Shown here: piece after piece, positions 4,894 to 27,927 of the stretch
Layout: the number at the start of each line of letters is the position of its first letter
Position numbering within the stretch: the stretch's first letter is position 1
From: Fidelibacterota bacterium
GTDB taxonomy: Bacteria > Fidelibacterota > UBA8477 > JABMPR01
Reading direction: 5' to 3'
Assembly: GCA_029939675.1 (NCBI GenBank)
Contig: JAOZSM010000005.1
Span: 1-34,334, forward strand
Length of the DNA: 34,334 nt
The notes under the pieces: model-generated
Database searches by the model: none
What the model saw: the letters and a program-made list of their open reading frames with translations, nothing else
Told to the model about the DNA's origin: nothing
Made by a program: the position numbers and the translations under genes

Positions 4894-4925
4894 TCTTTAC
4901 CCTTTGGATTATCTTCATGATAACT

Positions 4926-6895: not shown

Positions 6896-6905
6896 TGCAT
6901 ACCTC

Positions 6906-8306
6906 TCAAACCTTGGGTTCCACAAGTAAATCATCATCCCTGCGGTAAATAGTCACATGACCTTTGATAGACGCACTAAAATATTTCTTATGCCCAATTG
7001 TCACTGTAACCTTACGATATAATCTATCTCTGATCTTGACTGCGTATTCTGGAGATTGCACCTGGGTTTTCTGAGTTAATTGCTCAGTTTCTAGTCTTGC
7101 TTCCTCTACCCGGGCTCTGAATTTAATGATGGCTCCGTGCAATTTTGTGAGCTCTTTCTCCCTTTCAGTCGAAATCGTACCAAGTCGCTGTCTAAGCAAG
7201 TTCAGGAATTCCATCCGTTTCAGGAGTGAATCCAGTTTTTGATATTCTTCCGCCAACCTGATTTTGGATTGCCAAAGTTTAGATTCTTCCTCACCCATAT
7301 CGCTACGGGTCAGGACCATTTCAGTCAGAATGTTGCGTTCTGAACCAGCAATCAGGCATTCGATACCTTTTTCCGCAACTGTTTTGCCACCACGGAGCAA
7401 ACCCTCATTCTCAATGAGCATGATTCTGCCCCCGGATGTAATATTTGAATTGATGGCGTAGTGTTTAATAACCACGTCGTTTTTCACGCTAGCAGTAGCA
7501 TCTTGCATAAATCCACAATTTAAATCATCCCCTGCCAGTATCCTGGCTCGTTGTCTGCCCAAAACGCCATTTTGAATTATAATACTACCATTTTTTGAAT
7601 ATATCTCAGCTGCTTCTACACTCCCATGGATATAAATAGAGTCCGTGGCCTCAACCCGAAAGCCGGACCGTACATCTCCATCTACCATAACAGTTCCATT
7701 ATATTTCACATTCCCGGTACTGAAATCGACATCACCGTGGATGTGGTAAACATTATCTATGACAACTTCACCCCTTTTCATCAGGGCAACCCCGTCGATG
7801 GCTGCAAAAAGGGTCAATCCATCTGCAGAACACCAGGTATTCTTCCCTGTAGGAATACGCAATGGCGCAAGTTGATCTATTTCAAGGGCCTTTCCTGTTA
7901 CCGTTGAACCTGCTCTGGCAGGGCTTCCCGGTAACAGGGAAACAATTTCATCATTCTTGTTAACTGCTTTAAATTGATTTAGTATTTTATAATCAGCTTT
8001 ACCATCCACACTGATTTTGGGGCGATTCTTTTCAGCGATATCAATAGCCCAGACAAGCTCATCAGCTTTTCCGTCAATGATGTCTTCACCCTCGGCAATG
8101 ATGAGTTCATGGACGGGATCCTGATTTTCATGAACAATTTGTATGGTATGGTGATTAACACCAATTTTTACACCGGCGTCTGCCAGCGCCGTTTCAATTT
8201 CCGCCACTGTAGGGAATTCACTCCCCTGGCTACTGATCGACAGCAGAGCCGACATCTCATCACTTGAGATGGTAATGGTTATTCTGTCTGCTCTATAGAC
8301 TGTCAT
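6906..8306 (-). CDS. FapA-family protein (flagellar assembly protein A, DUF342)
   Basis: 466 aa. It shows the repetitive beta-helix pattern typical of DUF342 (GDVDFSTGNVKYNGTVMVDGDVRSGFRVEATDSIYIHGSVEAAEIYSKNGSIIIQNGV...). The motif GLLRGGKTVAEKGIECLIAGS follows, then a C-terminal coiled coil. Confidence 0.65.
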   Translation of the reverse strand: MTVYRADRITITISSDEMSALLSISSQGSEFPTVAEIETALADAGVKIGVNHHTIQIVHENQDPVHELIIAEGEDIIDGKADELVWAIDIAEKNRPKISVDGKADYKILNQFKAVNKNDEIVSLLPGSPARAGSTVTGKALEIDQLAPLRIPTGKNTWCSADGLTLFAAIDGVALMKRGEVVIDNVYHIHGDVDFSTGNVKYNGTVMVDGDVRSGFRVEATDSIYIHGSVEAAEIYSKNGSIIIQNGVLGRQRARILAGDDLNCGFMQDATASVKNDVVIKHYAINSNITSGGRIMLIENEGLLRGGKTVAEKGIECLIAGSERNILTEMVLTRSDMGEEESKLWQSKIRLAEEYQKLDSLLKRMEFLNLLRQRLGTISTEREKELTKLHGAIIKFRARVEEARLETEQLTQKTQVQSPEYAVKIRDRLYRKVTVTIGHKKYFSASIKGHVTIYRRDDDLLVEPKV

Positions 8307-8324
8307 TTCAGGTTTACAATCACT

Positions 8325-8588
8325 CTATTGATCTGAATATTGAAAGCGCAATTCAGAGCTTTTCCCACAGGAGCATTTATGAATCACACCAACGATCATA
8401 TCTCCCTCATAAATAGGCTGAAAAAATTCCACTCCCTCCCCGCTTGCCTCTTCGCGGGGGTCGAGATGAATCGTCCCTTTTACCCGGTTCCGAGTGCTTT
8501 TGATCACACCCTTTTTTTGACGCTTCTTGTGAATCAAGAACTGACTTTCATTATCATCAACTTCTATAAATTGGTCATCTTTTCCCAT
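8325..8588 (-). CDS. Hypothetical 87-aa protein
   Basis: The ORF lies in the operon between the CheZ-like gene and fapA. It has a basic stretch (HKKRQKKGVIKSTRNRVKG) followed about 20 aa later by EASGEG. This only faintly recalls the PilZ RxxxR...D/NxSxxG pattern and is not sufficient for a call. Confidence 0.4.
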   Translation of the reverse strand: MGKDDQFIEVDDNESQFLIHKKRQKKGVIKSTRNRVKGTIHLDPREEASGEGVEFFQPIYEGDMIVGVIHKCSCGKSSELRFQYSDQ

Positions 8589-8621
8589 ATTATCACCGAT
8601 TCCGATCTAAGTCAGATCCTG

Positions 8622-9245
8622 TTAACCAAATAACGAGTCGATATCATCCTGGGATATTTCCTCGTGATGAATTTCATCTTTAGTTTTATCCTCAAACTCT
8701 TGTTTTTCAAGTTCCCGAGACTCATTATCAATATTTTCTTCAATGGCCTCAAGCACTTTTTTACCAATGGATGTGGAAATCTTGGCTTCTTCTAACGAGG
8801 CAAAAAGTATGGTAAATTTCTCATATATGGCACCCAAAATCTTATTGGCATGGGCTAATTTTTGGGATGTAATATCCTGAAATTGCAGCGCATTCACGAT
8901 ATTGGCCACCTCATCATGCATAAGGTTAATACTTTCAGCCTGGGACCCTTTCTCAAGATCAGGCAAAGCTTCCAATGCTGCAGATATCCGATCCAGGGCA
9001 TCCAGTATCTCTACCGTAGCATATTCTGTGGCCTTGCTAACATCATCAATCCGATCCGATGCAGTCGGCAATTTATGAGCACTATCCTGTAGCGAACTAT
9101 TCATATCCGACATAAGGGGCATGATCTTTTTTAAAAATGAAAACAAATCACCCAGAAATGGAATGACTTCATCACCGAATTTAAAAAAACCGCGCATATC
9201 ATTGATGCGGGATAAAACCTCATCTAGCTGATTACTCTTGTTCAT
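8622..9245 (-). CDS. CheZ-family CheY-P phosphatase (CheZ-like)
   Basis: 207 aa and helical. It contains LQFQDITSQKL, which matches the CheZ active-site motif (FQDLTGQ with the catalytic Gln). It has an acidic C-terminal tail (EEISQDDIDSLFG) like the CheY-binding peptide of CheZ. It lies directly downstream of cheY. Confidence 0.6.
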   Translation of the reverse strand: MNKSNQLDEVLSRINDMRGFFKFGDEVIPFLGDLFSFLKKIMPLMSDMNSSLQDSAHKLPTASDRIDDVSKATEYATVEILDALDRISAALEALPDLEKGSQAESINLMHDEVANIVNALQFQDITSQKLAHANKILGAIYEKFTILFASLEEAKISTSIGKKVLEAIEENIDNESRELEKQEFEDKTKDEIHHEEISQDDIDSLFG

Positions 9246-9265
9246 TTAACTGACCTCGATCCCGT

Positions 9266-9637
9266 CTACTTTATTATATCACTAATTTTTTTCTTCAAAA
9301 CTTCCGGCGTAAAAGGTTTAACCACATAGCCATTCACCCCAATTTTTACCGCTGTGATCACATCCTCTTTCATGCCTCTGGTTGTCACCATAAGAATCGG
9401 TTTATCCTTATACTTGGGGTCCTCTCTGAGTTTAACGACAAGTTGCTCGCCGTTCATTTCAGGCATATTCCAATCTGTGATGATCAGATCAACTTCCACA
9501 CCTTCCAACTTCTCCAGTGCATCAGCACCATGTTCAGCTGCAATAAGATCTGTATAACCGATCTTGTTCAATGAGTTCTGGATGATTCGCCGCATCGTGG
9601 GTGAATCATCGACAAATAAAACCTTCAAGTCGCTCAT
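9266..9637 (-). CDS. cheY: Chemotaxis response regulator CheY
   Basis: 123 aa, single domain: KVLFVDDSPTMRRI, LIITDWNMPEMNG, VTTRG, NGYVVKPFT. The DW-NMP and Y-VKPF signatures are CheY-specific. Confidence 0.92.
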   Translation of the reverse strand: MSDLKVLFVDDSPTMRRIIQNSLNKIGYTDLIAAEHGADALEKLEGVEVDLIITDWNMPEMNGEQLVVKLREDPKYKDKPILMVTTRGMKEDVITAVKIGVNGYVVKPFTPEVLKKKISDIIK

Positions 9638-9661
9638 AATATTATCCCTTCATTCTTCCCA

Positions 9662-10732
9662 TTAATTTATTGTTGCTAAAGATTTTACCAAACCATCTAC
9701 ACTTAAAACTGCCGCTGTTAATCCTGCATCTACAGCTGCCTTCGGCATTCCATACACCACGCAGGTTGCTTCATCCTGGGCCAGAATAATGCCCTGTTTT
9801 GCATGTAGTTTGGCTAGCCCTAACACGCCATCTTTGCCCATTCCAGTTAGGATCAAACCCAATACTCTTGATCCGTATACATCCACAGCAGATTCAAACA
9901 AAACATCCGCTGAGGGATGGTATAACAATTCTGCAGGCTCTGGGCTTAACCTGACATATACGTGGACTCCTCGTCTCTTCAAAAAGAGGTGGTCACCCCC
10001 TCGGCCGATGTAGGCAGTGCCCGGTGATAGTTTTTCACCATCTTCTGCTTCCTTGACATGAATTTTGCAGATATTATCCAAACGACGAGCAAATGTGTCT
10101 GTAAACTCTTTTGGCATATGCTGAGCAATGATAATTGGATGAGGAAACGTTTCAGGGAGGGAGGTCAACAGTGATTGGACCACTGGAGGACCACCGGTTG
10201 ATACACCAAAGGCAAGCACTGATATTTGAGCTGATTTCAGGTTATGAAAGCCCGGCTCCCCTGCGGGAACCTGTTGGTCAGCAACTTTTGCGCGGGGAAC
10301 TCTAGATAATACTGGTCTACGAGCTGTTAAAATCCGATTGCTTTTGGCCACAGATTTTACCTTGGCAATCAGATCATCCTCAATCTTAGTGATATCAATT
10401 GCAACAAAAGATTGGGTCTTTGGAATATAGTCGACTGCACCAAGCTCCATGGCCTTGAGTGTGGTGGCTGCTCCTTTTGTCGTGATGGAGCTTACAACCA
10501 GAATCGGGGTCGGAGCTTTTTCCATGATCATTTTGATACAGGTTATGCCATTTGTACGGGGCATTTCCATATCAAGCGTGACAACATCCGGTTTGAATTG
10601 TAAAACTTTCTGAAAACCTTCTTCCCCATCGCGAGCGGTTCCAACCACCTTGATCTGGGGATCGCGTTCCATCATCAGACTTAGCGCTTTACGCATAAAT
10701 GCGGAATCATCAACAACAAGAACTCGGATCAA
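9662..10732 (-). CDS. cheB: Protein-glutamate methylesterase/glutaminase CheB (REC + methylesterase)
   Basis: 356 aa. It has a receiver domain (VLVVDDSAFMRK, VVTLDMEMPRTNG). The catalytic domain carries GVSTGGP, AQHMP and TGMGKDG (Ser/His/Asp). The TTG start overlaps the cheA stop (TTGA). Confidence 0.92.
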   Translation of the reverse strand: MIRVLVVDDSAFMRKALSLMMERDPQIKVVGTARDGEEGFQKVLQFKPDVVTLDMEMPRTNGITCIKMIMEKAPTPILVVSSITTKGAATTLKAMELGAVDYIPKTQSFVAIDITKIEDDLIAKVKSVAKSNRILTARRPVLSRVPRAKVADQQVPAGEPGFHNLKSAQISVLAFGVSTGGPPVVQSLLTSLPETFPHPIIIAQHMPKEFTDTFARRLDNICKIHVKEAEDGEKLSPGTAYIGRGGDHLFLKRRGVHVYVRLSPEPAELLYHPSADVLFESAVDVYGSRVLGLILTGMGKDGVLGLAKLHAKQGIILAQDEATCVVYGMPKAAVDAGLTAAVLSVDGLVKSLATIN

Positions 10733-12885
10733 GTCGGAGCACCTCCCATTTCAACACCTGATTCAAGAATTTGGGCTACATCCAGAATAAGTGAAACCTT
10801 TCCGTCGCCTCTTAAAGTGGCACCAGCAAAATACTTTACTTTCCCAAGTGCTTGTCCCAGGGGTTTAACTACCGTTTCCTCCTGACCCAGGAGGTTTGAG
10901 ACAACCAGACCCAATCTCCGATCAGCAATTGAAACAATAACAATATATTTTTCTGCATCCGGATCCTCTTCATGAGGAACATCCAACAGTCGATCCAGGC
11001 TTAAAATCGGCAAAACAGAATTCCGGAGAGTCAGCACTTCGTGTCCCTTCACTGAGGAGATCATTCTCTTCTCCATCCGCAGGGTTTCTGAGATTGCAAT
11101 CAAAGGGATGATATACATTTCGTCCCAGACCCTAACTACCATTCCTGTCATAATCGTCAGAGTCAGGGGCAATTTAATAATGAACACTGACCCCTTCCCC
11201 ACTTCTGATTCAATCTCAACCCCACCATTTAGTCTGGATATGTTGGTATTCACCACATCCATACCAACTCCCCGACCAGAGACATCAGTAATTTTTTCCG
11301 CCGTACTGAAACCAGGCTTGAAAATCATATTGATAATTTCTTTGGGTTTCATCAGAGCAGCTTCATCAGCGGTGACAATCCCTTTTTCCAAACTTTTTGC
11401 TAAAATCTTATCAGGATCAATACCTGCTCCGTCATCCCTGATCTGAATTACGATCTGATTGCCTTCCTGAAAGGCATTGAGACTAATGATACCTACACGG
11501 GGTTTGCCTTTTGATTCCCTAACTTCAGGCGTTTCAACACCATGATCCAAGGCATTACGCAAGAGGTGAATCATGGGGTCACCGATAGCTTCAATTACCG
11601 ATCGGTCCAATTCAGTTTCCTCACCTGTGATCACCAGGTCGATCTCTTTATTCTTGTCCTTGGCTAGATCACGAACCATTCGGGGGAATTTACGAAAGAC
11701 GTTAGCAATGGGGAGCATGCGCATCTGCATCACGCTCTCCTGGATCTCAGTTGTGATATATCCTAAAGAATTGTTCAGACTATCCAGATCACCTACTTCT
11801 TTATTATTGGGATAGGTCTTTTTAAGGAGATGACTAACCTGGAGCAGCCGATTCTTTCCCAACACTAATTCACCAGCGATATTCATCAAGTTATCCAGTC
11901 GACTTACATCTACCCGAATAGTTTGTTCGATCCGTTTTTTTGCGGCTGGTTTATTTTGTTGCTTCGCAGGAGAAGCAGCGGCTGGTTTTGTTACAGCCTG
12001 TTTGGGGCTTGCCTTTTTAGGCTCAATTTTTTCACCCAGAATCGTGTGTAAATTTTTGAATAACTCTGAAGTATCATGGGCTTTAAGATCGTTGGTACGA
12101 ACTTCTTCCAAGACAACCCTCATATAGTCAATGGATGCCAGAAGGGTATCAACCATGAAAGTGTCAGGCTCCAGTTTTTTCTCACGCAGTTGCCCCAGAA
12201 CATCTTCCGATTTATGCGCAACGCTGGACATCTGTTCAAGACCTACCAGACCACAATTCCCTTTAAGTGTATGAAACACCCTGAAGATCTCATTCACCAG
12301 GTCTTGATTTTCAGGCTCAATTTCCAACGACATGATCTCATTGCCAACGGTCTCCACCATCTCCGTGCTTTCATTGACAAATTCATCAATCAATTCCTGC
12401 GGCATACCTTCTGCAAGTGATGGAATCTGATCCATATCTTCTGCAATTTCCAGACTGGTTGAAGGATCTTTCTCAACTTTAGTGGATTTCCCTTTTAGCA
12501 ATTTTGAAATTGAATTTTCAAGATCGGCCGTATTGTATTCTCGCTCAATTCGGGCTTCTACATCCCCCATAAACATCTTAAACCAGTCGGAAGATTCAAG
12601 CAGGACATCAACAATCTCAGGATTTGGTTCAAGTTCTCCGCTGCGGATTTTATTGAGCAAATCTTCTGAGGAGTGCGCTAGATCCATACAGGTTTCAAAA
12701 GCAAGAAACCCGCTGGTTCCTTTGATTGTATGAAAGGCTCTAAATATGCGATTGATCACCTCATCATCTGTCTCTGTTTCGATGAGTAATAAATCCTGGT
12801 TCAATTGTTCGATAAGTTCATTGGTCTCAATCACAAAGTCATCAAGAATTTCAGCCAAATCCCCTAGCTCATCATACATACCCAT
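10729..12885 (-). CDS. cheA: Chemotaxis histidine kinase CheA with two tandem HPt (P1) domains
   Basis: 718 aa with two HPt signatures (RAFHTIKGTSGF and RVFHTLKGNCGL). A Pro/Ala/Lys linker follows. The P3/P4 region has RVDVSRLDNLMNIAGELV, HLLRNALDHG, DDGAGID and GRGVGMDVV. A C-terminal CheW-like P5 domain is present. Confidence 0.93.
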   Translation of the reverse strand: MGMYDELGDLAEILDDFVIETNELIEQLNQDLLLIETETDDEVINRIFRAFHTIKGTSGFLAFETCMDLAHSSEDLLNKIRSGELEPNPEIVDVLLESSDWFKMFMGDVEARIEREYNTADLENSISKLLKGKSTKVEKDPSTSLEIAEDMDQIPSLAEGMPQELIDEFVNESTEMVETVGNEIMSLEIEPENQDLVNEIFRVFHTLKGNCGLVGLEQMSSVAHKSEDVLGQLREKKLEPDTFMVDTLLASIDYMRVVLEEVRTNDLKAHDTSELFKNLHTILGEKIEPKKASPKQAVTKPAAASPAKQQNKPAAKKRIEQTIRVDVSRLDNLMNIAGELVLGKNRLLQVSHLLKKTYPNNKEVGDLDSLNNSLGYITTEIQESVMQMRMLPIANVFRKFPRMVRDLAKDKNKEIDLVITGEETELDRSVIEAIGDPMIHLLRNALDHGVETPEVRESKGKPRVGIISLNAFQEGNQIVIQIRDDGAGIDPDKILAKSLEKGIVTADEAALMKPKEIINMIFKPGFSTAEKITDVSGRGVGMDVVNTNISRLNGGVEIESEVGKGSVFIIKLPLTLTIMTGMVVRVWDEMYIIPLIAISETLRMEKRMISSVKGHEVLTLRNSVLPILSLDRLLDVPHEEDPDAEKYIVIVSIADRRLGLVVSNLLGQEETVVKPLGQALGKVKYFAGATLRGDGKVSLILDVAQILESGVEMGGAPT

Positions 12886-12903
12886 GAGAAATACTCCGTT
12901 CCC

Positions 12904-13281
12904 TTATTCGTCACCAGTGCCTAGATATTTGGACACGTGGTATTGAACCATTTTCGCATCAAATGGCTTAACGATATAACTGTTTGCACCGGCTGCTTTT
13001 CCTCTTGCCTTGGTTGCTTCGCTACGCTCGGAGGATAGGATGATAACAGGAAGGTCAGCATAATCCTGAGAGCCTCTGATAGTTTCGATCAATTCAAACC
13101 CATCCATATTTGGCATATTTAAGTCAACAATAGCCAGATCAACCCGGGTTTGTGATAACTTCTCCAGGGCATCCATTCCGTCTTCAGCAGCCACTACTTC
13201 AAAATTCTTCATCTTCAAGCTAAACGACACAAACTTACGCATGGTTGATGAATCGTCTGCTATGAGTATTACTTTTTTCAT
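12904..13281 (-). CDS. CheY-like single-domain response regulator
   Basis: The start is set at MKKVILIADDSSTMRKF (ATG 13281), which has a GGTGAT SD-like sequence upstream. REC motifs are LAIVDLNMPNMDG, ILSSE and YIVKPF. The track ORF (to 13398) adds 39 aa that overlap cheR and look non-coding. Confidence 0.85.
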   Translation of the reverse strand: MKKVILIADDSSTMRKFVSFSLKMKNFEVVAAEDGMDALEKLSQTRVDLAIVDLNMPNMDGFELIETIRGSQDYADLPVIILSSERSEATKARGKAAGANSYIVKPFDAKMVQYHVSKYLGTGDE

Positions 13282-13294
13282 GTTATCACCTGAC

Positions 13295-14170
13295 CTACTC
13301 TTTCTTATAGACAAAGGCACCTGGAAAGTGCTCAACCTTGAATGCTGAACTAACACCATGGAGCGATTCTGCTTCTCCAAGAAGCAAATAACCACCATGA
13401 TTTAGCACATCATAGAAAGCCTTAATCACCTTTTTTTTCATCTCTTTATCGAAATAGATCAATACATTGCGACAAAAGATAAAATCCAGACCACGATTTT
13501 GGCGTATGGTATTAATATCATTTAAATTGAGATAATCGAATTTTACCATCTTTCGAATATCATCATTAACGGTAAAGCGATCACCTTGAGCCGTAAAATA
13601 CTTCGACTTATAATAAGTACTGACAGTACCTCGAAAGGAATTGCGACCATATTCAGCCTTGCTGGCTGCATCCAAAATCCTGCGGCTGATATCAGTCCCT
13701 TTTAGCGAAATATTCCAACGACTCACTCCAATACCAAGAGTTTCTTTGATCATCATGGCTAAAGTGAATAACTCTTCACCTGATGATGAAGCAGCGCTCC
13801 AGATATTGACGCGTTTGTTCGCCGCTTGAGTTCTCTCCTTGATCATTTCAGGGAAAAGCGTTTTATTAAAGACATCCAGTTGCTTTGGATACCTGAAGAA
13901 ATAGGTCTCATTGATGGTAATAAGACTATAAATTTTCTTCAGCTCTTCAGTTTGAACTGATAGACGTCTCAAATGATTATAGTATTCCTGGAAACTCTCC
14001 AGGCCAAGTTCATTCAGCCGACTGCCCAACCGACCCTCTAGGAGATATAGCTTATTTTCAGGGAAAAATATCCCGCTTTTGTCATAAATCAGATCTCTTA
14101 GACTTTTAAAAAGTTCTGGGCTCAGTTTTCGACCATTTTTATTTCCGAGTAACATTATTCTAGTGCCCAC
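13295..14170 (-). CDS. cheR: Chemotaxis protein methyltransferase CheR (full length)
   Basis: 291 aa. It has the N-terminal helical domain (FKSLRDLIYDKSGIFF), TYFFR, the SAM motif VNIWSAASSSGEELFTLAM and FIFCRNVLIYFD. The GTG at 14170 overlaps the upstream gene by 11 nt; an alternative ATG lies at 14155. Confidence 0.88.
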   Translation of the reverse strand: MGTRIMLLGNKNGRKLSPELFKSLRDLIYDKSGIFFPENKLYLLEGRLGSRLNELGLESFQEYYNHLRRLSVQTEELKKIYSLITINETYFFRYPKQLDVFNKTLFPEMIKERTQAANKRVNIWSAASSSGEELFTLAMMIKETLGIGVSRWNISLKGTDISRRILDAASKAEYGRNSFRGTVSTYYKSKYFTAQGDRFTVNDDIRKMVKFDYLNLNDINTIRQNRGLDFIFCRNVLIYFDKEMKKKVIKAFYDVLNHGGYLLLGEAESLHGVSSAFKVEHFPGAFVYKKE

Positions 14171-15059
14171 TCAACAATTTAACCAGCTCTTTGATAACAA
14201 TTACTTCGTCCTCGATGCTCATCACAAATCGCTCAAAGTCCATTTCTGCAAGCTTTTGTGAAGCATTTCTCAGAATCACCCAACCGGTCTCTTCCCGAGG
14301 AATGCTGCGCTGAAAGTTTCTGCCAAAACTGATTGATTGTAGATTTGCAACGATATCCGCAATCTGAACCAGAGCAGTGGATACTTGATTTGCAGGCTCT
14401 TGAACCAGCTCCGGTGAATGATGATACTTTATCGCATTCAGGATCGATTCAGGTAGCTGCCACTTTTCTGCGACCCAGCTACCAATGGTCATATGATCAA
14501 TTCCCAAAATATGATTTTCAGCCTCTTCAGCACTGGTCAGGTTCTCAAGAGCATATTCAATAATCTGAACATATTTTTCGGGTTCAAGTCGGTACAATAT
14601 TATTTTTCCAACGTCATGCAGGAGGCCCAATGCGTAGGGACTGCTACCGGTTTGGATTCCCAGTGATTCCTGTAATAACTGAGCAATGTGTCCCACTCCC
14701 GCACTGTGTTCCCACAGCTTATCCCAATGCAGCCCAGCGGGATCATCGGAATCTGACAGCGTATTCATTACTGAAAAACCTATTGATAGATCACCTAGTT
14801 CCTTCATACCGATAATCACTAGAGCATGTCGCAAAGACTCAACCTTGCGGTGCATGCCATAGTAGGCTGAGTTGGCAATCTTTAAAACTTTCATCGCCAG
14901 AGGCGGATCTTTCTCGATAATAGGCAGTAATTGATTAACTGATAGCCTGTCATCATTCGTCACCTGCATAAGCTCCGTAGCAATCAACGGCAGAGAGGGA
15001 ATACGAGTGAGAGAGTTAATCTGCTCCCGATAGTATTTATGGGATCGTTCAATCGACAT
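14160..15059 (-). CDS. HDOD domain protein (copy 1)
   Basis: 299 aa with the HDOD signature LPLIATELMQV...LLPIIEKDPPLAMKVLKIANSAYYGM...SLRHALVIIGMKEL and LGLLHDVGKIIL. It is a clear paralog of 17056..17991. Confidence 0.8.
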   Translation of the reverse strand: MSIERSHKYYREQINSLTRIPSLPLIATELMQVTNDDRLSVNQLLPIIEKDPPLAMKVLKIANSAYYGMHRKVESLRHALVIIGMKELGDLSIGFSVMNTLSDSDDPAGLHWDKLWEHSAGVGHIAQLLQESLGIQTGSSPYALGLLHDVGKIILYRLEPEKYVQIIEYALENLTSAEEAENHILGIDHMTIGSWVAEKWQLPESILNAIKYHHSPELVQEPANQVSTALVQIADIVANLQSISFGRNFQRSIPREETGWVILRNASQKLAEMDFERFVMSIEDEVIVIKELVKLLSGH

Positions 15060-15071
15060 GATACTTCTCCC

Positions 15072-16340
15072 TCATCGGTCCTTTGACCAGTTATCCAGGA
15101 TTCTTTGAGCTTCAGTTCGGATTTCCTCCTGTTCGTCTGTAGCCAATATCTGAAGAATGTCCAGGGCTTCTTTGAGTTCGAAAAGCTCAACTGAACGCAT
15201 GGCAGCTAGCAATCGTAAGCCACTGAAATTTTTTAAGATACTCAATAATACAGGTTGTGCTTGCTCCAGAGGAATATTGTCAAAAGATTCCAGGGCAGAA
15301 TATGCTACCCAATCATCCTCATGATTTACAAGCTTCAGCAGTGCATCAGCATAGCCGGCATACCCTTTGGCATGGCGAATCAACCCCACAATCACGTTTG
15401 AGGGCAAGGTCTCAATTTTATTGAAAAACTCAGCAATAGTTGGATTATTGGGTTGCAAAGTAAATTGATGTAAAACCAGCGCTATGACTTCTTCCTCTAC
15501 AGTCGTAAGAGCTTCAAAAACGCTTTCCATAAACTGAACCTGTTGCTCATCGAGTACCAGATGATTCGCACTCTGACCGATCTTTAAGATTGCCAGGCAA
15601 ATATGATCTCTTAAGAAGTCTGGAGCAGTATCCATAAATTTGTATAGAGATTCTAAGGCGCTGGCTTGCCCCAAATTGCCAAACGCATCAATTATAGCAA
15701 AAGTAATGACTGGATCTTCTTGTTCCAGTCTGTCAGTAAGAAACTTAACGGACTCCTCTTGTCCAATGAGGCCAATTGCTTCGACGACTTCCGGCTCCAG
15801 TCCGCGATTTCGATCAAAAAGCTTATACAAAGCTGGTAATGCACCAGGATCACCAATTTTACCTAAAGCCTCTACTGCAGAAACTGCCACATTACTTACC
15901 TCATCCTCCAAGGCAGATTGACAAAGATTGGGAACTGCCTCAGAGTTACGAGCCAATCCCAGAATATCCGCACTGAATTTTCTGACATCCTCGTTGGAAT
16001 CCACCAAGGCCAATATCAAATCCTTAACAGCAGATTGACCATATTTAACCAGTACAGAAGCAGTGATGTTGCGTACTTCAATGCGCTCACTACCCAACAG
16101 GGGCGTCAATTTCCCAGTGCACACTTCGGGTTCAAGGGATTCTAGAATCTCAGAAGCAGCTTCGCGTACTGCCCGATTATCATCCTGAATTCCTTCAACA
16201 AGAATATCTATTACAGCGATAGCTTCGAATGCTCCCAGATCATAGATGGCCCAACGTCTTTCATCTGAGTCACTGGATTTCAACCGGAATAGAATGTTCT
16301 CGAGCTTTTGTTTGAGTTCTGTGTTTACATTACTTTCCAT
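15072..16340 (-). CDS. HEAT-repeat (PBS-lyase-type HEAT) protein
   Basis: 422 aa, all-helical. Units of the form D..VR..A...L recur (DDNRAVREAASEILESL, SNEDVRKFSADILGL, VSNVAVSAVEALGKIGDPGALPAL, EEIRTEAQRIL). Confidence 0.75.
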   Translation of the reverse strand: MESNVNTELKQKLENILFRLKSSDSDERRWAIYDLGAFEAIAVIDILVEGIQDDNRAVREAASEILESLEPEVCTGKLTPLLGSERIEVRNITASVLVKYGQSAVKDLILALVDSNEDVRKFSADILGLARNSEAVPNLCQSALEDEVSNVAVSAVEALGKIGDPGALPALYKLFDRNRGLEPEVVEAIGLIGQEESVKFLTDRLEQEDPVITFAIIDAFGNLGQASALESLYKFMDTAPDFLRDHICLAILKIGQSANHLVLDEQQVQFMESVFEALTTVEEEVIALVLHQFTLQPNNPTIAEFFNKIETLPSNVIVGLIRHAKGYAGYADALLKLVNHEDDWVAYSALESFDNIPLEQAQPVLLSILKNFSGLRLLAAMRSVELFELKEALDILQILATDEQEEIRTEAQRILDNWSKDR

Positions 16341-16355
16341 TCTATCATCCTTCCC

Positions 16356-17048
16356 TTAACGGGTCCTGTCCAAAAATCTGAAAAAGTGATTTCCCGGACT
16401 AATCCTCTCTAGTCCAATGGATCGCATAAAGCGACTACCAATTGATTCTAGATAAATAAAACCATGGGGATCAAGGTTCTTGATCAGCTTAGTCACAATT
16501 TTTTTGCGGTATTCCATTTCATAGTAAAACAGCACATTCGTACAAATCAGAATGTCATATTTTTTTGATACCTGGTGGGTAATTATGTCTTCCATAATAA
16601 ACTTGATTTTGCGTTTTACTTCATTTCTGATACTAACTAGTTTATTATCCACTATAGTGATATAGGCAGCATATTCCTTTAGTCGATCAACCTCGGCCCC
16701 ACCGATCCCATACTCGTTTTTCAATCCAATTTGAATCATTGATTCAGTGATATCTGAAGCCCGCAGTTCGAAGCGACAGAGATTGTTCGCCGGATGTTGC
16801 TGGATCCATTTATGAATCAATAAAGCAATGGAATAGGCCTCGCGTCCATCTGAGCATCCAGCAGACCAGATATTAACGCTTCCTCGATCTTTCAATTCGA
16901 GTAACACAGTATCACTCAAGGTCTTATATAGATCCTGTAAACGAAAAAAACCAGTTGCTGTAACCAGGGTACTACTGGCAAAGAACCCTTTACGGTCGCT
17001 GTTGGCATCCAGTGTGGCATCATATACGTGTCTGGTCATTTCGTTCAT
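16356..17048 (-). CDS. CheR-like SAM-dependent methyltransferase, short form
   Basis: 230 aa. It has the CheR catalytic-domain motifs GFFR, NIWSAGCSDGREAYSIALLI and ILICTNVLFYYE. Only about 35 residues precede the FFR motif, against about 85 in the full-length CheR of this window. The N-terminal helical domain is therefore truncated or absent. Confidence 0.75.
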   Translation of the reverse strand: MNEMTRHVYDATLDANSDRKGFFASSTLVTATGFFRLQDLYKTLSDTVLLELKDRGSVNIWSAGCSDGREAYSIALLIHKWIQQHPANNLCRFELRASDITESMIQIGLKNEYGIGGAEVDRLKEYAAYITIVDNKLVSIRNEVKRKIKFIMEDIITHQVSKKYDILICTNVLFYYEMEYRKKIVTKLIKNLDPHGFIYLESIGSRFMRSIGLERISPGNHFFRFLDRTR

Positions 17049-17055
17049 CTTCCAC

Positions 17056-17991
17056 TCACATATTCAGTAATTTTACCATATCCCGCACAGCACCCCAGTG
17101 TTCCTCGAGGTCGATCAGGAAGTCATTAAAATCTGTTTCCTGGGCTCTCACGGATCTGACCTGAATCATTTCCCAGGCTTCGGGGATGTCATCGGATGTT
17201 CGGAGTTTGCGGTAGCCAAAATTCAGTCGAATATTATTTGCTATAAAATTGGCCAACTGCACTAAGGAGCCCGCTAACCTGAGTTCTACATTTTCGATGT
17301 TAGAGAGGTTGTGATGATTCCCATTGACAGTCTGTACATACTCACTTAGCCCCCACCGTTCGGCGATCCAGCGACCAGCCTGTTGATGTGTAATACCAAA
17401 AATCCGGGCCTCTGCCTGAATCATAGAGACCTTTTCGGTCATGCTCAGGGTATATGCTTGATCAAATTTTTCGGGTTCTAAACGAAAGAGAACCAATTGT
17501 CCAATATCATGCAATAATCCCAGAGAATAAGGGCTTTCATCAAATCGGGTACCTAATTCATCATCCAGCAGCTCGGCAATATGTCCTACGGCAACACTGT
17601 GTTCCCAAAATTTATTCCAGGGAATAGAACTCTGAGTACCACTTCGGGACATTGATTTGAGTACAGAAAAGCCCAGAACAATTCCAGCCAGCTCGCGCAT
17701 TCCAATAATCACCACGGCTTGTCTCAAAGAATTCACTTTCCTACTCATACCGTAATAAGCCGAATTGGCAACTTTCAATATTTTCATTGCCAGCGAGGGA
17801 TCCTGTTCAATGATGGGCACTGTTTGAACCACTGAAAGTTTATCTTCCCGCATAATATTTTGAATTTCCAAAGCAATGGTCGGCAAAGTTGGCAGGCCAA
17901 TAAGTGACTGAATCCGATCCTTATAGTATTGAGCTTTTGAATCCAAGTCAGCTTCTCCTCGGCATGAAGGCAAAACCACCCAATTTTTCAT
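17056..17991 (-). CDS. HDOD domain protein (copy 2)
   Basis: 311 aa by the track. HDOD signature: LPTLPTIALEI...VPIIEQDPSLAMKILKVANSAYYGM...SLRQAVVIIGMREL and LGLLHDIGQLVL. The true start is probably the TTG at 17946. It has a GGAG 8 nt upstream and lies 1 nt after the upstream stop (TGACTTG). That start removes the 44-nt overlap. Confidence 0.8.
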   Translation of the reverse strand: MKNWVVLPSCRGEADLDSKAQYYKDRIQSLIGLPTLPTIALEIQNIMREDKLSVVQTVPIIEQDPSLAMKILKVANSAYYGMSRKVNSLRQAVVIIGMRELAGIVLGFSVLKSMSRSGTQSSIPWNKFWEHSVAVGHIAELLDDELGTRFDESPYSLGLLHDIGQLVLFRLEPEKFDQAYTLSMTEKVSMIQAEARIFGITHQQAGRWIAERWGLSEYVQTVNGNHHNLSNIENVELRLAGSLVQLANFIANNIRLNFGYRKLRTSDDIPEAWEMIQVRSVRAQETDFNDFLIDLEEHWGAVRDMVKLLNM

Positions 17992-18775
17992 ACTTTAGAT
18001 CAGACTTGGATATGAAATTAATTTTAGCGGCAATGGCATCCAGCATCAATACTTTTGAGAGCGGACTGCTTTTGATTGCCGCGTTGGGCATATCTTTGAA
18101 CATGGCCGTTCTGGGCTCTTGGATCATAGTGGTACCCCCATTAAGAACCATGGCCTTTAATCCCTCAGCACCATCACTTAGCATACCTGACATAATCACG
18201 GAAATTGCATTTTGCTTGAAGGCGATACCTGCATTAGCAAATACCCGATCAATTTCGGGATGGAATTTTGGTTTTTGCGGCTGGCGCAATATGGAAAATG
18301 ATTTTGTCATCGCTTTAAAATTATGTGATTTATCGCCTTCCAGGAAATAAAGCTTAGATGCGCGGATAGATTCTCCATCCTTGGCAATTTGGATCCTCTG
18401 GGATAAGCCATTCTTCATCTGAAACTTAGTCATGAATTGGAATCCCGGATTGTGATGCATAACGATAACGATGGGGATATGGGGTACAACAATATGTTTC
18501 ATTAAAGATCGCAGAGCTACATCCCCGCCTGCTGAACACCCCAGAAAGGCGATCTTGGTCCAGGCCAGGTGGATTCTTTTCACCTTTAAAAACTCTTCGA
18601 GACTGTGCAGGATCGGATCTGGAGCACCTGCCATCATTACATTTGCTCTGGGATGGGAACGTGCTTCCAGAACTGTATTGGCCAGTTCCATTTGCAATAT
18701 TCCCCCGGATACACCGGCAGAGGGACTGACCGAGATTCCAGCAAAGGCCGCTGCGATCGGATCCCGTATGATCAA
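17948..18775 (-). CDS. CheB-like methylesterase catalytic domain without a receiver domain
   Basis: 275 aa. It aligns by eye to the CheB C-terminal domain of this window with the triad retained: GCSAGG (Ser), VMHHNP (His) and SGMLSDG (Asp). HPEIDRVF and MFKDMPNAAI are also present. About 70 N-terminal residues have no recognisable motif. The track start is a TTG, so the exact start is uncertain. Confidence 0.72.
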   Translation of the reverse strand: MIIRDPIAAAFAGISVSPSAGVSGGILQMELANTVLEARSHPRANVMMAGAPDPILHSLEEFLKVKRIHLAWTKIAFLGCSAGGDVALRSLMKHIVVPHIPIVIVMHHNPGFQFMTKFQMKNGLSQRIQIAKDGESIRASKLYFLEGDKSHNFKAMTKSFSILRQPQKPKFHPEIDRVFANAGIAFKQNAISVIMSGMLSDGAEGLKAMVLNGGTTMIQEPRTAMFKDMPNAAIKSSPLSKVLMLDAIAAKINFISKSDLKYEKLGGFAFMPRRS

Positions 18776-18827
18776 TTTCTGGTCCTAAAATCATCGTGAT
18801 TTCTCATTTTCCTTCATGGATCACTTG

Positions 18828-19568
18828 TTAATTTAAAGTGACTGTTCCCTCATCAAATACATTCTCTAGATTTAATAATATCAATAATTTATTCACATTA
18901 TCACGAATTTGTGAATCACGAATCTTTACAACTCCACTGATATAATCCGTCCCAATATTTGTTTGAACACCTGTTGTAGATTCGATGTCGTTCTCATAAG
19001 CGTGCATGATTTCAGATACATAATCGACCAAAAACCCAATAGCTTGATTATTAATCTGTAAAACAATGATTCTTGTTTTATCGGTCCAAGTCACTTCTTT
19101 AAGGGCAAAACGCTTATGCAGATCGATTACAGGTGTAATGTTTCCGCGGAGATTCATCACGCCCAGGATAAATTCGGCAGCATTGGGCACCCGTGTAATT
19201 TCTGTAAATCTGACAACTTCCTGAACTTTAATGATGTCAACACCAAAAAGTCTGTCTGCCAGTGTAAAAACAACCAGATCTATCACCTTTTGGTCAGAAT
19301 CCTTTGATGCTCCCTCGATTCCTGGCTGTTCAGGACTCAGGGGTTTTTGATCGTTAGATGGGGTTGCTGTTTCTGATTCGACAACCTGCTCCTTTTTCAT
19401 CTTTCGGGTAGGTGACTCTGGCTCGTTCTCAGCTTTGTTTGGTTCTACTTTAGGCAGATCAACTAAATCATTCTGCTCTGTACTACTTTGAACATCCTGA
19501 TCCTGAACAACATTATTCTTCTCGTTCACATCCTTGTTCATTTTTCTAAGTTTTAGAATATCAACCAT
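18828..19568 (-). CDS. cheW: CheW-domain coupling protein with a ~100-aa low-complexity N-terminal extension
   Basis: 246 aa. The C-terminal 140 aa form a CheW domain (LVVFTLADRLFGVDIIKVQEVVRFTEITRVPNAAEFILGVMNLRGNITPVIDL). The N-terminal part is rich in E/K/Q/P/S and has no predicted fold. An AGGAAG SD lies upstream. Confidence 0.85.
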   Translation of the reverse strand: MVDILKLRKMNKDVNEKNNVVQDQDVQSSTEQNDLVDLPKVEPNKAENEPESPTRKMKKEQVVESETATPSNDQKPLSPEQPGIEGASKDSDQKVIDLVVFTLADRLFGVDIIKVQEVVRFTEITRVPNAAEFILGVMNLRGNITPVIDLHKRFALKEVTWTDKTRIIVLQINNQAIGFLVDYVSEIMHAYENDIESTTGVQTNIGTDYISGVVKIRDSQIRDNVNKLLILLNLENVFDEGTVTLN

Positions 19569-19582
19569 GGTTTCTTCCTGGG

Positions 19583-20404
19583 TTAATCGTTCAAATAAAA
19601 TATATCATTGACAGCATCATTGATTTGTTCGATGGCGACCTTTGTTACCCCAGCTGTCATGGCATGCAGTAAGCTGAATGAGGCAATATGATTAATCACA
19701 CGCGGCATGCCTTTGGACAACTCCCACAAACGCGTTACCGCTTCATCTGTAAATGGAAAACCAGCCATAAATCCAGCGACCTGTAATCTATGAAGCAGGT
19801 AATGGCGGGTTTCTTTTTTATCTAAGGGTTTAAGGGTAATTGAAAAGCGAATCCGTTCTACTAAAGCCCGGTATGCTCTATTTTTTAGTCGTTTGGCAAG
19901 CTCTGGTTGGCCCAGCATAATTACAGAGAGTAAATTTTGAGTATCAGTCTGGAAGTTGGTCAATAATCTGATCTCATCAAAGATTGCCTTTTTGGGGATG
20001 GATTGGGCCTCATCAATAATAACAACCGGATGGATTCCCTGTTGATATAGATCAACTAACCCAGTTGTTATCTGTTTTAAAACATCCCGTTTAAAATACT
20101 TAGGTTCAACGTTTAGAAGAGAGCTGCATATTTCTTTAAGAAAAGCTGTTGGTGACATTTGCGGGTTAATAATCCAACAGATCTTGTGCTGTTCCAGATC
20201 AAGTGAGTCTACCAATAATCTTGAAATGACCGTCTTTCCTGAGCCTATCTCACCGATTACCAGACCAAGTTCATGCTGTTCAATAGCATATTTAACCCAC
20301 TCCAGGGTAGTTGCATGAATCTGACTGGCGTAGAAAAATTCAGGATCAGGCGTTAAACCAAAGGGATCGCGGTTAAGTCCAAAATGTTCAATATACAAAC
20401 TCAT
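19583..20404 (-). CDS. ExeA/GspA/MshM-like AAA ATPase (COG3267-type)
   Basis: 273 aa. The N-terminus is HFGLNRDPFGLTPDPEFFY, typical of ExeA-like proteins. Walker A is GEIGSGKT and Walker B is VVIIDEAQ. It is the first gene of the che operon. Confidence 0.7.
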   Translation of the reverse strand: MSLYIEHFGLNRDPFGLTPDPEFFYASQIHATTLEWVKYAIEQHELGLVIGEIGSGKTVISRLLVDSLDLEQHKICWIINPQMSPTAFLKEICSSLLNVEPKYFKRDVLKQITTGLVDLYQQGIHPVVIIDEAQSIPKKAIFDEIRLLTNFQTDTQNLLSVIMLGQPELAKRLKNRAYRALVERIRFSITLKPLDKKETRHYLLHRLQVAGFMAGFPFTDEAVTRLWELSKGMPRVINHIASFSLLHAMTAGVTKVAIEQINDAVNDIFYLND

Positions 20405-20901: not shown

Positions 20902-22782
20902 ATGGGTTCGACAACATCAACGTTTAAATCTTTTTTCTATGATCACCCTGATGGTGTTATTCTTCGAGATAGAGAGGGAACCATCCTTGAAATCAATAAC
21001 GCTGCCTTGGATATTCTGGGATACTCCCGGGACGAACTTGTGGGAAAGAAAGAAGTTGAAATTATTGATTTCACCCGGATTGAGCCTGCCATTCTGAATA
21101 TGATGATTAGGAGTGTCTTTAACGGTGAGCATTATACTGCAGATCTATTTGCAAAAAAGAGCGACGGCACCAGTATTCCCATTCAGCTGCTTGTGAACCG
21201 GATTCAATATCAGGGTGAAGATGTTTTGGCCTACACCATAGAAGATATTACCATGCGTTTTGAAGTTGATATTGCCATGCGAGAGAGTGAAGAACGTTAT
21301 CGTAGTCTGGTAGACCTTTCCCCCTTTGCTATCTTTATTGTATCTGGCGAAAAGATCGCCTATCTGAATCCCGCTGCAGTCGCGTTGCTCCGCGGTGATA
21401 ATCAATACGACATCATCGGTCAGCCCATGACCTCCTTCGTAACTCCTGCCGAGCATAGTGGACTAATCCGCTGTCTTGAGGAACGAGAGTTAGAGGGTAA
21501 GCGAGAATTGACTCATACACAGTTTCTGGATGTAAGACATAATGTGGTTGAAGTTGAGGCAATTTGTCTACCCATTGTATTCAAGGGGGTTCCATCCACT
21601 CAGATCATCGGTTTAGACATCACTGAGCGTCGTTTACTTGAAGAAGAGCTGCGTCAATCCCAAAAGCTGGAAGCAATTGGTTTACTGGCTGGTGGTATTG
21701 CCCACGATTTTAATAATATTCTTACCGGAATTATTGGATATGCAGGTCTGGGACTTGGAGTACTTGAGGCCAAGCATCCTGCTTTCAGATTTTTTCAACA
21801 AATTGAAATTAAATCCCAGGAAGCAGCCAAACTGGTTCATCAGCTTTTGGCGTTCAGTCGCAAAGATATTCTATCATTCACCAGTTTAGATTTGAATGAC
21901 ATCATTAGAAGCTCCAGTGACTTTTTGGGAAGAATATTACCAGAGGATATTGACTATACTACCTCTCCCTGTGACACTGATTGTACAATCAATGCTGATC
22001 CAGTTGCCTTACAGCAGATCTTGACCAACCTCTGCGTTAATGCCCGTGACGCCATGCCAGGTGGTGGGAGTATCTTTATCACTACGGAAATCATTTATCT
22101 GGAAGAAAATACAATTAATCCCTCCTTTGAGTTCAGTCCCGGCAATTTTGTCAAACTTATGGTAAAGGACATGGGTACTGGAATGGATAATGAAATCCTG
22201 GAACAGATGTATGACCCCTTCTTCACCACCAAGGGAATAGGCGAAGGCAGTGGGCTTGGACTATCCATGGTTTATGGTCTTGTAAAACAACACAAGGGTA
22301 TGATCCATTGCAAAAGCCGGATTGGTGAAGGGACAGTTTTTGAAGTCTATTTCCCACTCAGGGAGGAACGCTCACCCATTTCGAGTGTCATCAGGGAAGA
22401 AAAGGATATTATCCATGGACGTGAAACTATCCTGCTGGTTGAAGATGATATTGATGTACTGACCATTTTGCAGAGTATTCTTGAATCAGCCGGATACACT
22501 GTAAAAATGGCTAAAAATGGGAAAGTAGCCCTGGATATTATTCTGGGTACCAGCTATTCAATTGATCTGGTAATTACAGATCTAATCATGCCTGAGATGA
22601 GCGGAACTGAATTATATAAAAAAGTGGAACACTTGCCAAAGCGACCGGAATTCCTTTTCATCAGCGGATATGCCCGTGATTCTGAAATGCGAGGATTAAA
22701 ACTTAGTCCAACGGTTGAATTTATGAAAAAACCTTTCACAGCCACGGAACTAAATCGCCGGGTCAGAAAGGTATTAGATTAA
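20902..22782 (+). CDS. Hybrid sensor histidine kinase (PAS-PAS-HisKA-HATPase_c-REC)
   Basis: 626 aa with two PAS-like modules (GVILRDREGTILEINNAAL; SPFAIFIVSGEKIAYLNPAAV). The H-box is GGIAHDFNNILTGIIGYA. The N/G boxes are NLCVNARDAMP, DMGTGMD and GSGLGLS. The C-terminal receiver has ILLVEDDIDV, LVITDLIMPEMSG and MKKPF. Confidence 0.9.
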   Translation: MGSTTSTFKSFFYDHPDGVILRDREGTILEINNAALDILGYSRDELVGKKEVEIIDFTRIEPAILNMMIRSVFNGEHYTADLFAKKSDGTSIPIQLLVNRIQYQGEDVLAYTIEDITMRFEVDIAMRESEERYRSLVDLSPFAIFIVSGEKIAYLNPAAVALLRGDNQYDIIGQPMTSFVTPAEHSGLIRCLEERELEGKRELTHTQFLDVRHNVVEVEAICLPIVFKGVPSTQIIGLDITERRLLEEELRQSQKLEAIGLLAGGIAHDFNNILTGIIGYAGLGLGVLEAKHPAFRFFQQIEIKSQEAAKLVHQLLAFSRKDILSFTSLDLNDIIRSSSDFLGRILPEDIDYTTSPCDTDCTINADPVALQQILTNLCVNARDAMPGGGSIFITTEIIYLEENTINPSFEFSPGNFVKLMVKDMGTGMDNEILEQMYDPFFTTKGIGEGSGLGLSMVYGLVKQHKGMIHCKSRIGEGTVFEVYFPLREERSPISSVIREEKDIIHGRETILLVEDDIDVLTILQSILESAGYTVKMAKNGKVALDIILGTSYSIDLVITDLIMPEMSGTELYKKVEHLPKRPEFLFISGYARDSEMRGLKLSPTVEFMKKPFTATELNRRVRKVLD

Positions 22783-26953: not shown

Positions 26954-26959
26954 TTGGAA

Positions 26960-26990
26960 CCTCCTTGTTTAGAGATGGGCATCCTTGCCC
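26960..26990 (-). promoter_or_regulatory. CsrA-type translational control leader of flagellin 1 (GGA hairpin plus GGA-containing SD)
   Basis: The minus strand reads GGGCA-AGGA-TGCCC (26990..26977), presenting AGGA in a tetraloop. ACAAGGAGG (26968..26960), overlapping the SD, lies 10 nt downstream. Confidence 0.6.
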
Positions 26991-27070
26991 ACATTGACGG
27001 TATCGTTGTTACGGTTTCAGGCTCCGTCACTACCTCATATAAAACCGTATTCAAAAAACCTTCTTCCCAA

Positions 27071-27096
27071 ATATCGCCAGTAACAGACAAACCTTA
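27071..27096 (-). promoter_or_regulatory. Sigma-28 (FliA/SigD)-type promoter of flagellin 1
   Basis: The minus strand reads TAAG-N14-GGCGATAT against the consensus TAAA-N14/15-GCCGATAT/AA. The predicted leader is about 110 nt. Confidence 0.55.
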
Positions 27097-27915: not shown

Positions 27916-27927
27916 ACTTCGTGCTAT

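Follow-up and report, generated by a model that had tools for sequence, protein, structure and literature searches.

The adaptation, or receptor-methylation, part of a flagellar chemotaxis operon in a Marinimicrobia-type bacterium is built around a HEAT-repeat protein. The operon lies on contig JAOZSM010000005.1 of a Fidelibacterota genome (GCA_029939675.1), of which a stretch of 34,334 nucleotides, here called the window, was analysed. Six minus-strand genes make up the region: a CheB-type methylesterase without a receiver domain (CheB'), an HDOD protein (HDOD'), a short CheR-type methyltransferase (CheR'), the HEAT-repeat protein (HEAT), a further HDOD protein (HDOD) and a full-length CheR. 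All six are present where an earlier note on this DNA had placed them, on the same strand, and Pfam profile searches back every domain assignment. Comparison with related loci shows that the order HEAT gene, then cheR, is the conserved core of the arrangement, that the second CheR on the other side of the HEAT gene is an old, separate paralogue and not a local duplicate, and that the upstream CheR of Marinimicrobia has lost its N-terminal receptor-recognition domain. The HDOD genes are shown, at the level of sequence, to be lineage-specific additions that were duplicated once or twice and kept a complete set of di-iron ligands. The HEAT-plus-methyltransferase core is widespread and apparently an undescribed part of bacterial chemotaxis systems.

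Linkage of the HEAT protein to cheR

The HEAT gene (15072..16340, minus strand) encodes a protein of 422 amino acids in which Pfam finds HEAT_2, in four stretches, and HEAT_PBS (E-value 1.3e-37), that is, repeats of the PBS-lyase type. It has about 63 full-length orthologues, and the nearest sequences of solved structure are designed alphaRep proteins. We collected loci of its relatives in two collection scans that took their seeds solely from motifs of this HEAT family. Among the 100 loci that have enough downstream DNA, cheR is found next or nearly next to the HEAT relative in 65: directly in 48, after an HDOD gene in nine, after a gene for a receiver (REC) or other protein in seven and, in one, after genes for a protein that we call X, a methyl-accepting chemotaxis protein (MCP) and an HDOD protein. 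The HEAT relatives were encountered in Zixibacteria, Ignavibacteria, Bacteroidetes metagenome-assembled genomes (MAGs), KSB1, KSB3, Nitrospirota, Deltaproteobacteria and soil metagenomes, and the cheR-linked ones represent at least seven phylum-level groups. Loci without cheR mostly encode giant HEAT proteins of cyanobacteria. Contigs from soil metagenomes show the order CheY-CheA-CheW-CheW-HEAT-CheR-CheB, and Deltaproteobacteria, including a Geobacteraceae MAG, the order CheR-HEAT-CheR-CheB. In the Marinimicrobia, Deltaproteobacteria, Nitrospirota and soil loci, the gene that touches HEAT is cheR and never a REC gene.

A natural fusion bears on the same association. The protein P0254, which surfaced in a search with the CheR' profile, comprises in a single chain of 856 amino acids CheR_N and CheR domains, HEAT repeats and again CheR_N and CheR domains, as judged by Pfam. 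Between its HEAT part and the HEAT protein of the window, identity is 32% (E-value 4e-22). The N-terminal CheR scores 256 bits against a profile of the deltaproteobacterial CheRs encoded upstream of HEAT and 220 against the downstream profile, whereas the C-terminal CheR scores best, with 239 bits, against the downstream-of-HEAT profile and 153 otherwise; against the CheR' profile, the N-terminal half reaches 108 bits and the C-terminal half 78. The fusion gene is present on two contigs, with a REC-CheB gene after it. Its existence shows that all three parts can work when joined in a single chain, arranged as the separate genes are. In the window, the HEAT and CheR-type proteins are unfused and encoded by separate genes 15 nt apart.

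Other chains carry two complete CheR units in tandem, namely P0256 (6001-7824 of locus L157), P0258 and P0259 (L158). P0256 is encoded among genes for HWE/HisKA histidine kinases, and the same contig bears a separate HEAT-CheR-CheY-CheA cluster on the opposite strand. We considered the tandem CheR-CheR fusions P0256 and P0259 and set them aside, as they come from other contexts and add little.

Closer to the window, about 29 Marinimicrobia-type loci, recovered via the HEAT protein and scored by a pipeline of open reading frames (ORFs) and BLAST, form a mosaic. The exact six-gene order CheB'-HDOD'-CheR'-HEAT-HDOD-CheR recurs in L087, L090 and L003/L093, so that the arrangement is conserved in related genomes; the HEAT proteins of L087, L090 and L003 are 46-70% identical to that of the window. 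HDOD' is missing from the order CheB'-CheR'-HEAT-HDOD-CheR (L007, L009, L088, L094 and L097), and CheB' as well from CheR'-HEAT-HDOD-CheR (L008) and from CheR'-HEAT-X-MCP-HDOD-CheR (L001, L006 and L104). Both CheR' and CheR occur without any HDOD in loci of the order CheB'-CheR'-HEAT-CheR (L010, L011, L089 and L099-L102). HDOD' occurs without CheB' or CheR' in CheW-HDOD'-HEAT-HDOD-CheR (L091 and L092), and the more distant loci L004 and L108 have HEAT-HDOD-CheR. CheB' usually accompanies CheR' and was never seen without it among these loci, and CheB', HDOD', CheR' and HDOD are each absent from some of them. All that the loci have in common is a HEAT gene with full-length cheR and the core che genes after it, either immediately or beyond inserted genes. 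Because every accessory gene can be missing, the pairing of HDOD with CheR is not obligate, contrary to what the earlier note had supposed; of its expected neighbourhood, an HDOD gene upstream of cheR does recur in relatives, but HEAT-CheR alone is constant.

The extra CheR and CheB and the HDOD proteins

CheB' (17948..18775, minus strand) has 275 amino acids from a TTG start at 18775, which is backed by an N-terminus conserved in nine orthologues. Its sole Pfam domain is CheB_methylest (residues 78-252, E-value 2.8e-36), and the Pfam scan gave no REC match. Residues S81, H107 and D201 align with S164, H190 and D286 of Salmonella CheB (1A2O; also 1CHD), and this catalytic triad is invariant across 25 orthologues. 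The catalytic part of the AlphaFold2 (AF2) model superimposes on 3SFT with a TM-score of 0.81 and on 1CHD with 0.77. CheB' scores 97-98 bits against the NCBIfam CheB models, far under their cut-offs of 293-342, and is 25% identical to the catalytic domain of REC-CheB. The first ~70 residues are conserved in the orthologues and are predicted to form a small helical unit (pLDDT ~80-88), for which no match among solved structures was found, as Foldseek matched the catalytic part only. We rejected the idea that this extension is a remnant of a REC domain or linker; in a profile-profile comparison, residues 75-251 are the only ones that align, and they do so with the CheB catalytic domain. Alignment, Pfam and ortholog conservation thus agree with the description of this protein as a receiver-less CheB that keeps its Ser/His/Asp triad and carries some 70 additional N-terminal residues. 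The family has 27 members, after which scores drop to a generic level. The CheB of Campylobacter jejuni is also a catalytic domain without REC and is the sole CheB of its system; CheB', by contrast, is additional to a canonical REC-CheB and has the conserved 70-residue N-extension.

CheR' (16356..17048, minus strand; 230 amino acids) consists of the CheR catalytic domain with its beta-subdomain and is devoid of the N-terminal all-alpha domain. Pfam recognizes the CheR SAM-binding domain only (E-value 5.3e-29), with no match to CheR_N (PF03705), and just 28 residues precede the catalytic domain; the alignment with the Bacillus subtilis CheR (5FTW) begins at residue 66. The motifs FFR, WSAGCSDGRExYS, ASD and NV...Y align with the solved CheRs 5FTW and 5XLY, and the SAM-binding and active-site motifs are invariant in 24 orthologues. 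The AF2 model (pLDDT 90.6) resembles most closely, by target-normalised TM-score (0.82), the isolated C-terminal domain of Pseudomonas aeruginosa CheR1 (5XLX). The ten best Foldseek matches are all CheR structures, and the MapZ-CheR1 complex 5XLY is among the top ones. Pfam, alignment and structural matches therefore bear out an extra CheR with its SAM motif kept and its N-terminal helical domain missing, and the catalytic residues of both extra enzymes align with known active sites. The N-terminal domain is the part of Salmonella CheR that recognizes the methylation helix of MCPs. The CheR' family comprises about 24 short members in a word-indexed search and about 20 full-length representatives in a profile search of 1.84 billion cluster representatives; past it, scores fall to the level of generic CheRs. 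The few named members of the CheB' and CheR' families come from MAGs labelled Marinimicrobia, Neomarinimicrobiota or 'FCB group'.

The full-length CheR (13295..14155, minus strand) has both the CheR_N and the SAM domain (E-value 9e-53). Its start is probably the ATG at 14155, inferred from the 286-residue orthologue of L087, and the ORF can be extended to a GTG at 14170. CheR' and CheR are only 24% identical. Neighbour joining on the catalytic domain recovers CheR' as a clade with 100% bootstrap support that, in 80% of replicates, joins the upstream-of-HEAT CheRs of Deltaproteobacteria and not the neighbouring CheR; the CheR of the window clusters with all downstream-of-HEAT CheRs of several phyla, apart from the CheR' clade. 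On these sequence comparisons, CheR' and CheB' are separate clades restricted to Marinimicrobia, and they constitute a conserved extra methyltransferase/methylesterase pair in the che operon with intact catalytic residues. The second methylation/demethylation pair that had been suspected here is, to that extent, real.

We know of no established biochemistry for the HDOD domain, although it is very common in motility-related signalling proteins. HDOD (14160..15059, minus strand; 299 amino acids) is encoded directly upstream of the full-length cheR and matches Pfam HDOD (E-value 5e-55) and HD (1e-9). HDOD' (17056..17946, minus strand; Pfam HDOD E-value 2.9e-51) has 296 amino acids from a TTG at 17946, its most likely start, which lies 1 nt past the stop codon of CheB', a spacing also seen in the 70%-identical relative L087; the maximal ORF extends to 17991. 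Scoring 174 and 186 bits, the two proteins cover 195-196 of the 196 positions of the HDOD profile (PF08668). They are paralogues, 42% identical over 295 residues in a gapless alignment (E-value 2e-90) that includes the shared blocks on which their kinship had been proposed. Their best match in the PDB is 3HC1 from Geobacter sulfurreducens (E-value 1.5e-30 for HDOD), in which two iron ions are held by five histidines and one aspartate (PMC12075610). The residues aligned to these ligands, H118, H148, D149, H189, H213 and H214, show no variation among the 21 che-linked HDOD proteins compared; a further aspartate, D235, is replaced by asparagine only in the HDOD' clade. The HDOD' copies of the window, L087, L090 and L092 form one clade, and the copy of L003 may stem from a second duplication. 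HDOD' is a rare, late addition. HDOD genes also lie a few genes upstream of HEAT-CheR in Ignavibacteria (L022, L031 and L053), and a metagenome contig (L111) has the order HDOD-HEAT-HDOD with a HEAT protein of 602 amino acids, so the association of HDOD with HEAT is not limited to Marinimicrobia.

The kinship of the two HDOD proteins had suggested that an HDOD+CheR unit was duplicated around the HEAT gene. This tandem duplication is rejected because the identities differ too much, at 42% for the HDOD pair as against 24% for CheR'/CheR and 25% for CheB'/CheB, because the CheR tree contradicts it, and because many CheR'-HEAT loci have no HDOD'.

The flagellar chemotaxis operon and its receptors

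The chemotaxis and regulatory cluster is a tightly packed run of 19 minus-strand genes (3523-20404), within which the 13 chemotaxis genes listed here span 8622-20404. It is flanked on both sides, within the window, by flagellar genes: FliF and rod proteins on one, two flagellins, FliD and FlaG on the other. This flagellar context implies an F-type chemosensory system in the Wuichet-Zhulin scheme. The run opens with an AAA_22 ATPase (19583..20404; Pfam AAA_22) and a CheW (18828..19568; Pfam CheW at residues 98-239, after an N-terminal extension of ~95 residues), and continues with CheB', HDOD', CheR', HEAT, HDOD and CheR. Next come CheY1 (12904..13281; 125 amino acids, Pfam REC), whose ATG at 13281 lies 13 nt past the cheR stop; CheA (10729..12885; Pfam Hpt in two stretches, H-kinase_dim, HATPase_c and CheW); the canonical REC-CheB (9662..10732; Pfam REC and CheB_methylest, with an NCBIfam CheB score of 410 bits that exceeds the cut-off); CheY2 (9266..9637; Pfam REC); and a CheZ-like protein (8622..9245), all on the minus strand. 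The last of these matches Pfam CheZ weakly (2.4e-5, under the gathering score), and its orthologues hold the same position in all related loci. An 87-residue ORF, FapA, a REC-GAF protein, a REC protein and a sigma-54 activator complete the order.

With refined starts, the gaps are 1-15 nt across the six-gene block and into CheY1, which confirms the tight spacing described earlier (15 nt or less, or overlap); CheW and CheB' lie 52 nt apart. We found no convincing intergenic terminator, the terminator and promoter scans both performing at chance level.

Several features of the surroundings recur in relatives. The 87-residue ORF (8325-8588, minus strand), which has no Pfam match and lies between the CheZ-like gene and fapA, keeps its position in nearly all Marinimicrobia-type loci. 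From 8306 to 3523, the genes for FapA, REC-GAF, the REC protein and a REC-sigma54-HTH activator (FlrC-like) continue the che genes unbroken on the minus strand, and FapA and REC-GAF are kept at this post-che position in most related loci. The ATPase and CheW genes, 14 nt apart, also head the che clusters of L006, L007, L087, L090, L097 and L107, and such a pair, 38-43% identical, is found beside cheA on contigs of Nitrospirota and others (L051, L052, L072, L120 and L144). By analogy with the logic of ParC/ParP, the two might serve to position the array. The window CheA has two Hpt (P1) domains; the CheAs of Zixibacteria and Ignavibacteria align only from about residue 163, that is, with one Hpt. 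Divergent from the che operon is a PAS-PAS-HisKA-HATPase-REC hybrid kinase gene (20902-22782, plus strand), with a similar gene in the same place in L087 and L090. The two flagellin genes (26132-26953 and 27928-28749, minus strand) both encode 273 amino acids and lie about 1 kb apart, and the segment between them (26954-27927) holds no ORF of at least 110 amino acids.

Pfam scans that covered every ORF of 110 amino acids or more and tblastn with a related MCP agree that the window has no MCP gene, as had been noted before. The absence had been read as a hint of a non-MCP substrate, a reading that finds no support in relatives, which carry an MCP gene in the same cluster, either between HEAT and HDOD (L001, L006 and L104) or just upstream (L008, L097 and L107). 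These cluster-linked MCPs have no pentapeptide tether, their C-termini ending in ...QFKV. The insertion between HEAT and HDOD (11277-13410 in L001, 11277-13391 in L006; also in L104) consists of protein X, of 177-183 residues, and an MCP, encoded at 11842-13410 in L001, with two transmembrane segments and a HAMP domain. We rejected protein X as a CheD- or CheW-like component: its N-terminus resembles a signal peptide and its only match, a weak one, is to ABC_sub_bind. The protein probably works in the periplasm as binding partner of the MCP next to it, and the two together look like a sensor cassette of binding protein plus receptor.

Possible roles of the HEAT protein and its neighbours

The arrangement leads us to propose that HEAT would serve as a scaffold, keeping the CheR-type enzymes at the receptor array and, by way of these, CheB' as well. 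It may thereby substitute both for the N-domain that CheR' has lost and for the pentapeptide tether absent from these MCPs. CheR' and CheB' would form a methylation/demethylation or deamidation couple acting on ordinary MCPs, beside the CheA-controlled REC-CheB. Since CheB' has no inhibitory receiver, its activity would not depend on phosphorylation by CheA, unless the N-extension of the protein or HDOD' exerts control over it. The HDOD proteins may tune the adjacent enzymes in response to a signal at their metal site (redox, O2/NO or nucleotide). The model for this last step is the Pseudomonas aeruginosa MapZ-CheR1 complex (PDB 5XLY and 5Y4R), in which a small accessory protein binds CheR and tunes receptor methylation; MapZ, however, is a PilZ-domain receptor of c-di-GMP encoded elsewhere, whereas HDOD is a domain of the HD superfamily with a di-iron site, encoded beside cheR, and its role is suggested by analogy. 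We hold the whole picture of a HEAT scaffold, a phosphorylation-independent CheR'/CheB' couple on MCPs and di-iron HDOD regulators tentatively, at somewhat under an even chance. Distinctly more doubtful, in our estimate, is the broader claim that CheR-HEAT-CheR, with or without CheB, is an undescribed and widespread scaffold for adaptation enzymes, on which Marinimicrobia have elaborated with the CheR'/CheB' couple and with di-iron HDOD proteins that feed a redox, gas or nucleotide signal into receptor methylation.

A number of observations weigh against this proposal. The scaffold role is drawn from gene order and one rare fusion, P0254 being a single 90% cluster on two contigs. The finding that two-thirds of the loci link HEAT to cheR covers relatives of this HEAT family and not HEAT proteins generally, because the scan motifs came from that family. 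In Zixibacteria and Ignavibacteria, a REC gene lies between HEAT and cheR, which suits a CheY partner just as well, and for the two HEAT proteins that have been studied to date the known partners are CheY-type or switch proteins and not CheR. Long-branch attraction could account for the placement of CheR' beside the upstream CheRs of Deltaproteobacteria (80%, neighbour joining), and a CheR that has lost its N-domain might be quite unable to methylate MCPs. One entire sublineage does without HDOD genes, which therefore cannot be core to the mechanism.

The most serious competitor to a scaffold, though we regard it as unlikely, is that HEAT is a CheY-binding output protein or regulator and that its adjacency to cheR is operon history only. 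It draws on two systems. In Myxococcus xanthus Che7, a PBS-lyase-type HEAT protein, Cpc7, is likewise encoded in a che cluster with CheA, CheY, CheB and CheR (Darnell et al. 2014 via PMC11514114 and PMC9040617), and its reported partner is CheY7 (PMC11514114). Che7 is a non-motility pathway, whereas the window cluster is flagellar, has its HEAT gene flanked by CheR-type genes and adds a truncated CheR and CheB as well as HDOD proteins. The HEAT_PBS protein OE2401F of the che/motility region of Halobacterium salinarum is required for taxis output and for motor switching; its partners are CheY, CheD, CheC2 and archaellum accessory proteins, but it is archaeal and encoded beside DUF439 (CheF) genes, not cheR (PMC2666748). 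A single-domain REC gene directly after HEAT in Zixibacteria and Ignavibacteria, a CheY gene directly before HEAT in KSB3 and the two CheY genes of the window operon are in line with such a role. Against it, cheR and not a REC gene touches HEAT in the Marinimicrobia, Deltaproteobacteria, Nitrospirota and soil loci, and the sole fusion that we found joins HEAT with two CheR domains and not with REC. A CheY partnership and a scaffold role of HEAT are in any case not mutually exclusive.

Reversible glutamate methylation of HEAT or HDOD, instead of MCPs, by CheR' and CheB', with HEAT as a soluble methyl-accepting signalling protein, seems improbable to us. It would accommodate a CheR' that is encoded always immediately upstream of HEAT and is deprived of the domain with which Salmonella CheR recognizes its receptors, as well as a window without an MCP gene. 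Yet MCP genes are embedded in the same cluster of relatives, L091 and L092 keep HEAT and both HDOD proteins without CheR' or CheB', so that the function of HEAT and HDOD is independent of these enzymes, and the HEAT consensus consists of ordinary PBS-type repeats in which we saw, by eye, no MCP-like methylation motif. That the extra genes are relics in decay from an earlier, second che system, encoding non-functional truncated enzymes, we consider very improbable. CheR' and CheB' are indeed both shorter than the canonical enzymes and each is missing from some related loci, but their ORFs are intact with a translationally coupled spacing of 1-15 nt, their catalytic and SAM-binding residues are invariant over 24-25 orthologues that are only 31-79% identical, and both have confident AF2 folds, the N-extension of CheB' being itself conserved.

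Returning to the proposed scaffold, the components belong to known families, with the reservation that CheB' lacks the REC domain and CheR' the CheR_N domain of the canonical enzymes. The nearest formal analogues of the P0254 fusion are FrzF and WspC, in which a CheR catalytic unit is joined to alpha-helical TPR repeats thought to mediate contacts or control methylation (PMC3447774). Unlike these, which serve alternative cellular functions, the flagellar system described here uses HEAT/PBS repeats, normally on a separate protein of ~420 amino acids, and two CheRs. The deltaproteobacterial CheR-HEAT-CheR-CheB module (Geobacteraceae MAG L068) has the same order, and its upstream and downstream CheRs fall into the same two clades as CheR' and CheR; it differs in that its upstream CheR is full length, its HEAT protein has ~790 amino acids, and it has neither HDOD nor a receiver-less CheB. 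A paper on the che clusters of Geobacter (PMC2577667) makes no mention of HEAT. None of Che7/Cpc7, the haloarchaeal HEAT_PBS protein, the CheR-TPR fusions and MapZ-CheR1 combines a CheR-flanked HEAT protein, a receiver-less CheB and HDOD proteins, and in the searchable literature we found no description of the HDOD/CheR/CheB/HEAT arrangement.

The model of a duplicated, obligate HDOD-CheR pair is thus wrong, and what takes its place is a broader pattern that is conserved, seems not to have been studied and is accessible to experiment. For genome annotation, the truncated 'CheR' and 'CheB' of Marinimicrobia should not be taken for redundant duplicates or pseudogenes. HDOD paralogues with intact di-iron ligands, wedged between methylation enzymes, offer a concrete context for assays, and, if the proposed role is true, would provide the first defined biochemical role for the HDOD domain. 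Receptor methylation is the memory of bacterial chemotaxis, and a question for most bacteria is how CheR and CheB reach receptors that have no pentapeptide tether and why many systems carry several CheRs. If our reading of the arrangement is true, HEAT, whose gene is tied to cheR in the genomes of many phyla and which one natural protein carries between two CheRs, would be a candidate for recruiting the adaptation enzymes, and the idea can be tested directly in culturable bacteria that carry CheR-HEAT-CheR-CheB.

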